Positions 26,301 through 27,568 of a stretch of 35,519 nt of DNA are shown piece after piece. The stretch comes from Methylomarinum sp. (lineage in GTDB: Bacteria; Pseudomonadota; Gammaproteobacteria; Methylococcales; Methylomonadaceae): assembly GCA_030641565.1 (NCBI GenBank), contig DAOWHF010000223.1, positions 1 through 35,519 of the forward strand, read 5' to 3'. A program made the position numbers and the translations under genes. Position 1 is the first letter of the stretch. Each line of letters starts with the position of its first letter. The notes below the pieces were generated by a model, which worked only from the letters and a program-made list of their open reading frames with translations, searched no databases and had not been told where the DNA came from.

Positions 26301-27568
26301 AAGCATAATCGGATGTTCACGAATCACATCTTCAAGAATATCCCAAACTTCTGCACCTTCACGCTCAACCATTTTCTTTGCCGCTTTAATGGTTGTAGCT
26401 AGACCACGAAATTGTAACTTACTAAATATAAAAGGCTTAAATAACTCCAAAGCCATTTTCTTTGGTAAACCACACTGATGCAATTTAAGTGTTGGCCCTA
26501 CAACAATTACTGAACGACCAGAATAATCTACTCGTTTCCCTAGCAAGTTCTGTCTAAAACGCCCCTGCTTACCCTTAATCATATCGGCTAATGATTTAAG
26601 CGGTCTTCTATTCGTACCAGTAATCGCACGTCCACGACGCCCATTATCTAATAAGGCATCAACAGATTCCTGCAACATCCGTTTTTCATTGCGAACAATA
26701 ATATCAGGCGCATTAAGATCTAATAAGCGTCCTAAACGGTTATTTCTGTTAATAACACGACGATATAAATCATTTAGGTCTGACGTTGCAAAACGTCCGC
26801 CATCAAGTGGCACTAAAGGACGCAATTCAGGTGGTAATACCGGCAATACTGTCATAATCATCCATTCAGGACGATTACTAGAAGCAACTAATGATTCAAT
26901 AACCTTCAGACGCTTGGAGTATTTTTTAATTTTTGTTTCTGAATTTGTTGAATTGATCTCTTCGCGAAGAATATTAATTTCCTCTTTAAGATCAATAGAC
27001 TTCAATAAATCATAGACAGCCTCAGCACCCATCTTTGCATCAAATTCATCACCATGCTCTTCAATAGCGTTCAGATACTCTTCGTCTGTTAGCAATTGGC
27101 CACGCTCTAATGGTGTTAAACCTGGATCAAGAACCACGAATGATTCAAAATATAACACCCGCTCTATTCCTCGCAAAGTCATATCCAATAACAATGCAAT
27201 TCTTGATGGCAACGATTTAAAAACCAAATATGAGCAACAGGGCTTGCTAAATCAATATGCCCCATTCTTTCACGTCTGACTTTAGAGATTGTAACTTCAA
27301 CGCCACATTTCTCACAAATCACACCGCGATGCTTTAATCTTTTGTATTTTCCACACAAACATTCATAGTCACTAACTGGCCCAAAAATCTTTGCACAAAA
27401 AAGACCATCACGCTCAGGCTTAAAAGTACGGTAATTAATTGTTTCCGGTTTTTTTACCTCACCATATGACCACGAACGAATCATGGCTGGCGACGCTAAT
27501 CCAATCCTAATGGCATCAAAGTCTTCATTACGACCTTGACGTTTTAAAAAATTCATCAAATCTTTCAA
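23355..27568 (-). CDS. rpoC: DNA-directed RNA polymerase subunit beta-prime, interrupted as assembled by a 1-nt frame change near codon 117 (two ORFs: 27568-27179 and 27227-23355)
   Basis: The N-terminal [45 protein letters not shown] follows E. coli RpoC, then diverges. The -1 frame continues [22 protein letters not shown].. through to the C-terminus. Joined length is about 1406-1407 aa, the same as E. coli. A database pipeline would probably flag it as a frameshifted pseudogene. Confidence 0.9.

Follow-up and report, generated by a model that had tools for sequence, protein, structure and literature searches.

A one-base loss at a slippery heptamer in rpoC of a Methylomarinum contig, probably a consensus error

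Described systems in which a gene occupies two reading frames

The described cases closest to an essential gene found in two overlapping frames are of several kinds. Programmed -1 ribosomal frameshifting, as in dnaX and in IS911/IS3, takes place at an in-frame X_XXY_YYZ heptamer located at the frame junction. The stimulators considered here are a stem-loop or pseudoknot 5-9 nt downstream and/or an SD-like sequence upstream. In E. coli, a heptamer that lacks such elements raises shifting by no more than 2-10 fold above the ~0.055% background, and AAU, like other heterogeneous codons in the A site, is less shift-prone than AAA or AAG (Sharma et al., 2014, PMC4066793). These are class-level rules, and the study gives no specific value for U_UUA_AAU. 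Transcriptional slippage in bacteria and endosymbionts has been documented on long runs of about 9 A or T, and mitochondria and insect endosymbionts provide documented cases in which frameshifting or slippage rescues an indel (Atkins et al., 2016, PMC5009743). In Buchnera and Blochmannia the rescued essential genes are broken by an indel in an A/T homopolymer context, and the tracts are long poly(A) (PMC5009743).

Draft and metagenome assemblies contain homopolymer-indel artefacts, in which a single base is lost from a short homopolymer in one assembly only, while the gene otherwise shows purifying selection and is intact in a conspecific. Such broken rpoC fragments are public (P0126, P0132, P0148, and P0198). 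A split beta-prime (rpoC1/rpoC2) also exists in cyanobacteria and plastids, where two consecutive ORFs jointly cover the subunit.

The divided rpoC frame

The window, meaning the whole stretch of 35,519 nt that was analysed, carries a secE-nusG-rplKAJL-rpoBC-rpsLG-fusA-tuf-S10/spc/alpha gene block on its minus strand. In this block rpoC consists of two ORFs, 27568-27179 (129 codons) and 27227-23355 (1290 codons). The relevant features are as follows.

27179..27568, minus strand: N-terminal rpoC fragment, matching Pfam RNA_pol_Rpb1_1 at profile positions 2-95 of 312
27215..27223, minus strand: site of the missing base, TTTTTAAAT, T5A3 in the window versus T5A4 in the conspecific contig
23355..27227, minus strand: C-terminal rpoC frame, shifted by -1 from the N-terminal fragment, with beta-prime homology from KSLPSR onward
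27179..27182, minus strand: ATGA overlap, formed by the TGA stop of the N-terminal fragment and the first ATG of the C-terminal one (also in contig L097, see below)

The first-pass annotation of this DNA had read the zero frame as ..CAT ATT TGG TTT TTA AAT CGT TGC.. (HIWFLNRC) running into the TGA at 27181-27179, had placed the continuing beta-prime homology in the -1 frame (..AAA TCG TTG CCA TCA AGA..), and had located the heptamer T_TTA_AAT at 27221-27215. Re-reading of the minus strand returned the same sequence and the same coordinates at every point. TTTAAAT is present there in the right phase, and the -1 frame is open down to the normal rpoC end at 23355.

Counted from the TTG at 27568, the N-terminal fragment contains 117 genuine beta-prime residues, or 113 if the ATG at 27556 is the start. 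They are followed by N118 (K118 in E. coli numbering), 11 out-of-frame residues, and the TGA at 27181-27179. The C-terminal frame covers Pfam Rpb1 domains 1 to 5, with domain 1 represented by profile positions 89-312. Its public gene call, P0061, is 1275 aa long and starts at the ATG at 27182.

The stop/start overlap ATGA at 27182-27179 might suggest that beta-prime is made as two polypeptides, with termination at the TGA (27181-27179), re-initiation at the overlapping ATG, and assembly of both fragments into the polymerase. The two consecutive ORFs that jointly cover beta-prime are also what rpoC1/rpoC2 would look like. A genuinely split subunit would, however, be expected to divide between domains, to keep its conserved residues, and to be common to relatives. 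The split in the window falls in the middle of the conserved Pfam Rpb1 domain 1 (RNA_pol_Rpb1_1), 12 invariant residues are exchanged for 12 unrelated ones, and no relative is split. Moreover, the ATG is not preceded by an SD sequence, and the ATGA is a by-product, because it results from conserved D-M-T codons (GAT ATG ACT) being read one base out of frame. A two-piece beta-prime is for these reasons given next to no likelihood.

Conspecific and related sequences

The conspecific reference was an ENA contig of 27,171 nt, ZHAN22-2_SAMN18200495 scaffold_1491, from which two overlapping loci (L081 and L085) were cut. Over 22,103 nt the window and L081 are 99.851% identical and differ by 32 mismatches and a single gap, while L085 gives 23 mismatches and no gaps over 14,924 nt. 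The two loci jointly span 27,170 nt, and the sole gap relative to the window is an A at the rpoC site. The conspecific contig here reads CAT ATT TGG TTT TTA AAA TCG TTG CCA, i.e. TTTTTAAAATCG, and encodes an intact 1400-aa beta-prime (P0001), which is the top protein match and is 100% identical (rounded). Two Logan contigs of 89% DNA identity (P0002, 97% amino-acid identity) also have TTTTTAAAATCG at the site. The first-pass annotation had named a contiguous frame in relatives as the observation that would speak for an assembly or sequencing indel, and this is what the 99.85%-identical contig and both 89%-identical contigs contain.

The 32 substitutions imply that the window and the conspecific contig come from independent strains. 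Of the coding substitutions, 25/30 are synonymous, and on the 3' side of the break rpoC differs by four synonymous changes and one I to V replacement, with no further stops. Judged from these sequences, rpoC is under purifying selection, with no decay or other sign of pseudogenisation.

Some further sequences of this or related organisms do not extend to rpoC. The NCBI MAG contig JAGLOR010000147.1 (L086, GCA_023138845.1), found through a look-up with ribosomal protein L5, is 99.94% identical to the window with no gaps, and rpoC lies outside its span. Look-ups with L7/L12 and S12 returned only the conspecific contig and short sister-sample fragments that stop short of the rpoC site. Four loci (L093-L096, from ENA ZHAN22-2 SAMN18200489, -491, and -492, and from ERZ25073494) encode an S12 identical to that of the window and do not reach the rpoC site either. 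They may come from this Methylococcales species or a close relative of it, in several samples of one study.

Conservation of the site was followed further with the repaired beta-prime as query, and 120 protein matches were examined. They place the window among uncultured marine Methylococcales, and the closest entries with a name belong to 'Methylococcales bacterium' MAGs (92%) and to sponge-symbiont Methylococcales (89%). The nearest proteins are all full length (119/119, 1397-1407 aa), with an identical stretch around HIWFLKSLP and an invariant K, and the only truncated entry among the 120 is P0061, the window's own. Among the matches listed, HIWFLKSLP is in frame at 80/80 gammaproteobacterial genome loci, with codon choices that vary widely. 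The matches listed from a contig scan were distant gammaproteobacteria, the best of them having 92% amino-acid identity, and they served to judge conservation, not to compare strains. In the JGI metagenomes, a scan with a 39-nt pattern permitting A3 or A4 gave no matches, while a second, shorter pattern gave five, all of them (5/5) with the extra base. Exact-product look-ups recorded nothing for the N-terminal fragment, with either the TTG or the ATG start, or for the RpoB of the window. The lack of an exact match to the N-terminal fragment means that no other assembly encodes the same truncated product.

The one indel between the window and its conspecific is the change of A4 to A3 in a homopolymer, and it is absent from an independent sequence of the same species. 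An ancestral TTT TTA AAA TCG (F L K S) has lost one A to become TTT TTA AAT CG. The loss is private to one assembled contig and is not a decoding signal, and most likely it entered the consensus when this metagenome-derived contig was sequenced or assembled. The rpoC of the organism itself would then be ordinary and uninterrupted, encoding ..HIWFLKSLPSR.. by normal translation, and T_TTA_AAT would be what remains when one base is removed from the abutting homopolymers T5A4. The sequences show the deletion, its uniqueness, the intact conspecific gene, and the lack of stimulators; that the deletion is a consensus error rather than a genuine feature or a real allele is what we infer, with a probability of about 0.85. 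The first-pass annotation had regarded an A4 read as A3, through an error or a recent mutation, as the most parsimonious explanation, and the intact relatives support that assessment.

The accuracy of the rest of the window speaks against a plain error. The 27-kb overlap contains 443 other homopolymer runs of at least 4 nt (293 of 4 nt, 102 of 5, 34 of 6, 13 of 7, and one of 8), and all 443 are concordant between the window and the conspecific contig, including those of 7 and 8 nt. The contig being clean elsewhere, the assembly is not generally homopolymer-noisy, and it would be somewhat unusual for a single error to fall in a run as short as A4. Noisy assemblies such as L097 (see below) differ in this respect, in that the window has no other indel over 27 kb and would contain a single isolated error, if error it is.

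This concordance would also suit a deletion that really exists in the sampled population as an allele without function, either a minority or dead-end variant or a complemented polyploid copy, picked by the assembler. The species may be present in several samples of one study, and strain-level variation is evident from the 32 SNPs. A null allele in an essential single-copy gene should, however, not reach consensus frequency, and rpoC bears no further sign of decay. Nor was the A3 variant found in other assemblies by the exact-product look-ups or the JGI scans. A real allele of this kind is accordingly judged improbable, though it is the alternative to a consensus error that deserves most weight.

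The slippery heptamer and a second break at the same codon

A -1 shift can give the full-length protein only in a permissive stretch, bounded by the last stop of the -1 frame (27254) and the stop of the zero frame (27181). T_TTA_AAT is the only in-frame X_XXY_YYZ in this stretch, so the heptamer that characterizes programmed -1 frameshifting is present and lies at the frame junction, as in dnaX and IS911/IS3. The motif itself is not enriched in the window, where TTTAAAT occurs 19 times against an expectation of 19.5, i.e. at chance level.

The resemblance does not extend to the stimulatory elements. The 60 nt downstream of the heptamer have an MFE of -11.5 kcal/mol (z -0.32 versus shuffled sequence) and the 120 nt downstream one of -28.7 kcal/mol (z -0.85), and the 20 nt upstream contain no SD-like or GGAGG-like stimulator. 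Folding and inspection of the upstream sequence thus agree with the remark in the first-pass annotation that no obvious stimulator is present. In a search of the window against Rfam, the only matches were two tRNAs, and there was none near the rpoC break.

The coincidence of break and motif was evaluated by deleting one base in silico from every homopolymer of the repaired rpoC. An in-frame X_XXY_YYZ was left by 1.5% of all possible deletions, and for runs of at least 4 nt one touching the deleted run was left in 5/55 cases (9%). The coincidence is weak evidence because the adjacent homopolymers that make up slippery heptamers are also the places at which indels occur. Removal of one base from T5A4 necessarily produces T_TTA_AAT, and the motif is therefore a by-product of where the indel is located.

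A conserved programmed -1 site that regulates or diversifies beta-prime would have the heptamer alone in its favor. Neither the shift site nor the two-frame layout is conserved among relatives; the layout is absent from the conspecific contig, the 119 nearest proteins, the 80 loci (among the matches listed), and the five metagenome matches, and there is no stimulatory structure. The site thus differs from dnaX and IS911/IS3 in having neither a downstream stem-loop or pseudoknot nor an upstream SD-like element, and in not being conserved even within the species. It further differs in its A-site AAU, a poor shifter in bacteria, and in a product that alters an invariant lysine. On these sequence comparisons a conserved programmed frameshift is already refuted by the absence of conservation, and its likelihood is negligible. 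The idea under which the first-pass annotation had presented the break, a functional -1 slippery site, is not borne out, given the contiguous relatives and the missing stimulator.

A further proposal would be that this strain carries a real, fixed deletion, compensated by corrective slippage. In the ribosomal form, a -1 slip on U_UUA_AAU would yield HIWFLNSLPSR; in the transcriptional form, RNA polymerase would add a U or an A on T5A3 and the product would be HIWFFKSLPSR or HIWFLKSLPSR. Such compensation would draw on the in-frame X_XXY_YYZ exactly at the break, the sole one in the permissive stretch, and on the documented rescue of indels in mitochondria and insect endosymbionts (PMC5009743). 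A strain at 99.85% identity has A4, however, and the stimulator is absent. The expected efficiency is below 1% (PMC4066793), and stimulator-free shifting at such a level is far too low for an essential subunit. The ribosomal slip would also replace by N a lysine that is invariant in 119/119 proteins and, among the matches listed, at 80/80 loci. For the transcriptional form, the runs here are T5 and A3 and not the about 9 A or T on which slippage is documented (PMC5009743).

The essential gene broken by an indel in an A/T homopolymer context is reminiscent of the rescue in Buchnera and Blochmannia, but these have long poly(A) tracts (PMC5009743) in place of T5 and A3. The host is a free-living-type or marine Methylococcales with 39% GC, and not an extremely AT-rich reduced endosymbiont. 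If A3 were nonetheless fixed and corrected, the case would amount to a 'problem indel' of very recent origin, affecting an essential gene in a bacterium of free-living type and sustained by stimulator-independent recoding. With a real and fixed deletion, corrective recoding of rpoC outside the endosymbionts would deserve attention; nothing here points to it. Corrective slippage in either form, the two taken jointly, is regarded as very unlikely.

The same T5A3 break in a second organism could be counted in favor of corrective slippage and against a plain error, and it could hint at a recurrent real event. A search with the N-terminal fragment including its out-of-frame tail returned P0126 (..HIWFLNHFHQELGCCLI, 129 aa) on contig L097. 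This is ENA ERZ27251153 k141_804200, a 42.5-kb MEGAHIT contig with 35% GC from a marine gammaproteobacterium, and thus from another organism than the window. L097 is the one other contig with the T5A3 break, which interrupts its rpoC at the same codon, with parts of 129 aa and 1267 aa and the same ATGA overlap. In addition, 2 nt are gone from an A-run in rplD (GGTGGTGGTAAAACC versus GGTGGTGGAAAAAAACC), which frameshifts ribosomal protein L4. The positions are:

10340-10390 and 18470-18530 of L097: rpoC break and rplD deletion

The relatives of L097 have genomes of about 1.1 Mb. As a guess, the contig may derive from the SUP05 clade, a name carried by no match in the searches for its relatives. 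If corrected slippage were true, the same break in this unrelated, SUP05-like contig would suggest a recurrent tolerated event at the codon. The approximately 100 nearest relatives of L097 (90-96% amino-acid identity) are, however, full length (1396-1407 aa) except for a few shorter entries (1035-1217 aa) whose matches cover part of the query only, and the nearest ones, at 96% amino-acid identity, are intact. Six sequenced loci of one relative (P0242) have TTTTTAAAGTCA at the site. The -2 deletion in rplD is beyond rescue by a -1 slip, and L097 therefore looks error-prone. A recurrent real event was rejected on these grounds: the query itself selected for this very out-of-frame tail, the relatives are intact, and a second A-run deletion is found in rplD.

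Other public N-terminal fragments of rpoC (P0132, P0148, and P0198) have their breaks a few codons away from this site. The N-terminus of P0148 matches that of E. coli beta-prime. Frameshifted N-terminal fragments of rpoC are common background noise in public assemblies. As it stands, the break in the window matters little, and it is one more essential-gene break that disappears once a conspecific sequence is consulted. More generally, an indel that falls on a slippery heptamer is weak evidence of recoding, as both depend on adjacent homopolymers.

Two further features of the window were noted. Genes for tRNA-Trp(CCA) and tRNA-Thr(GGT) are located at 35227-35302 and 35403-35478 (minus strand), just upstream of secE. 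No tuf lies between these tRNAs and secE in the window, while the contigs L097 and L098 have tuf immediately upstream of secE. The window also contains two EF-G genes, at 690-2774 (plus strand) and 20204-22309 (minus strand). The canonical fusA is part of the str operon and encodes 701 aa. The paralogue, on the opposite strand to fusA, is full-length (694 aa) with all five EF-G Pfam domains, and it is positioned past rplQ and a sodB/CYTH/TPR/ferredoxin cluster.
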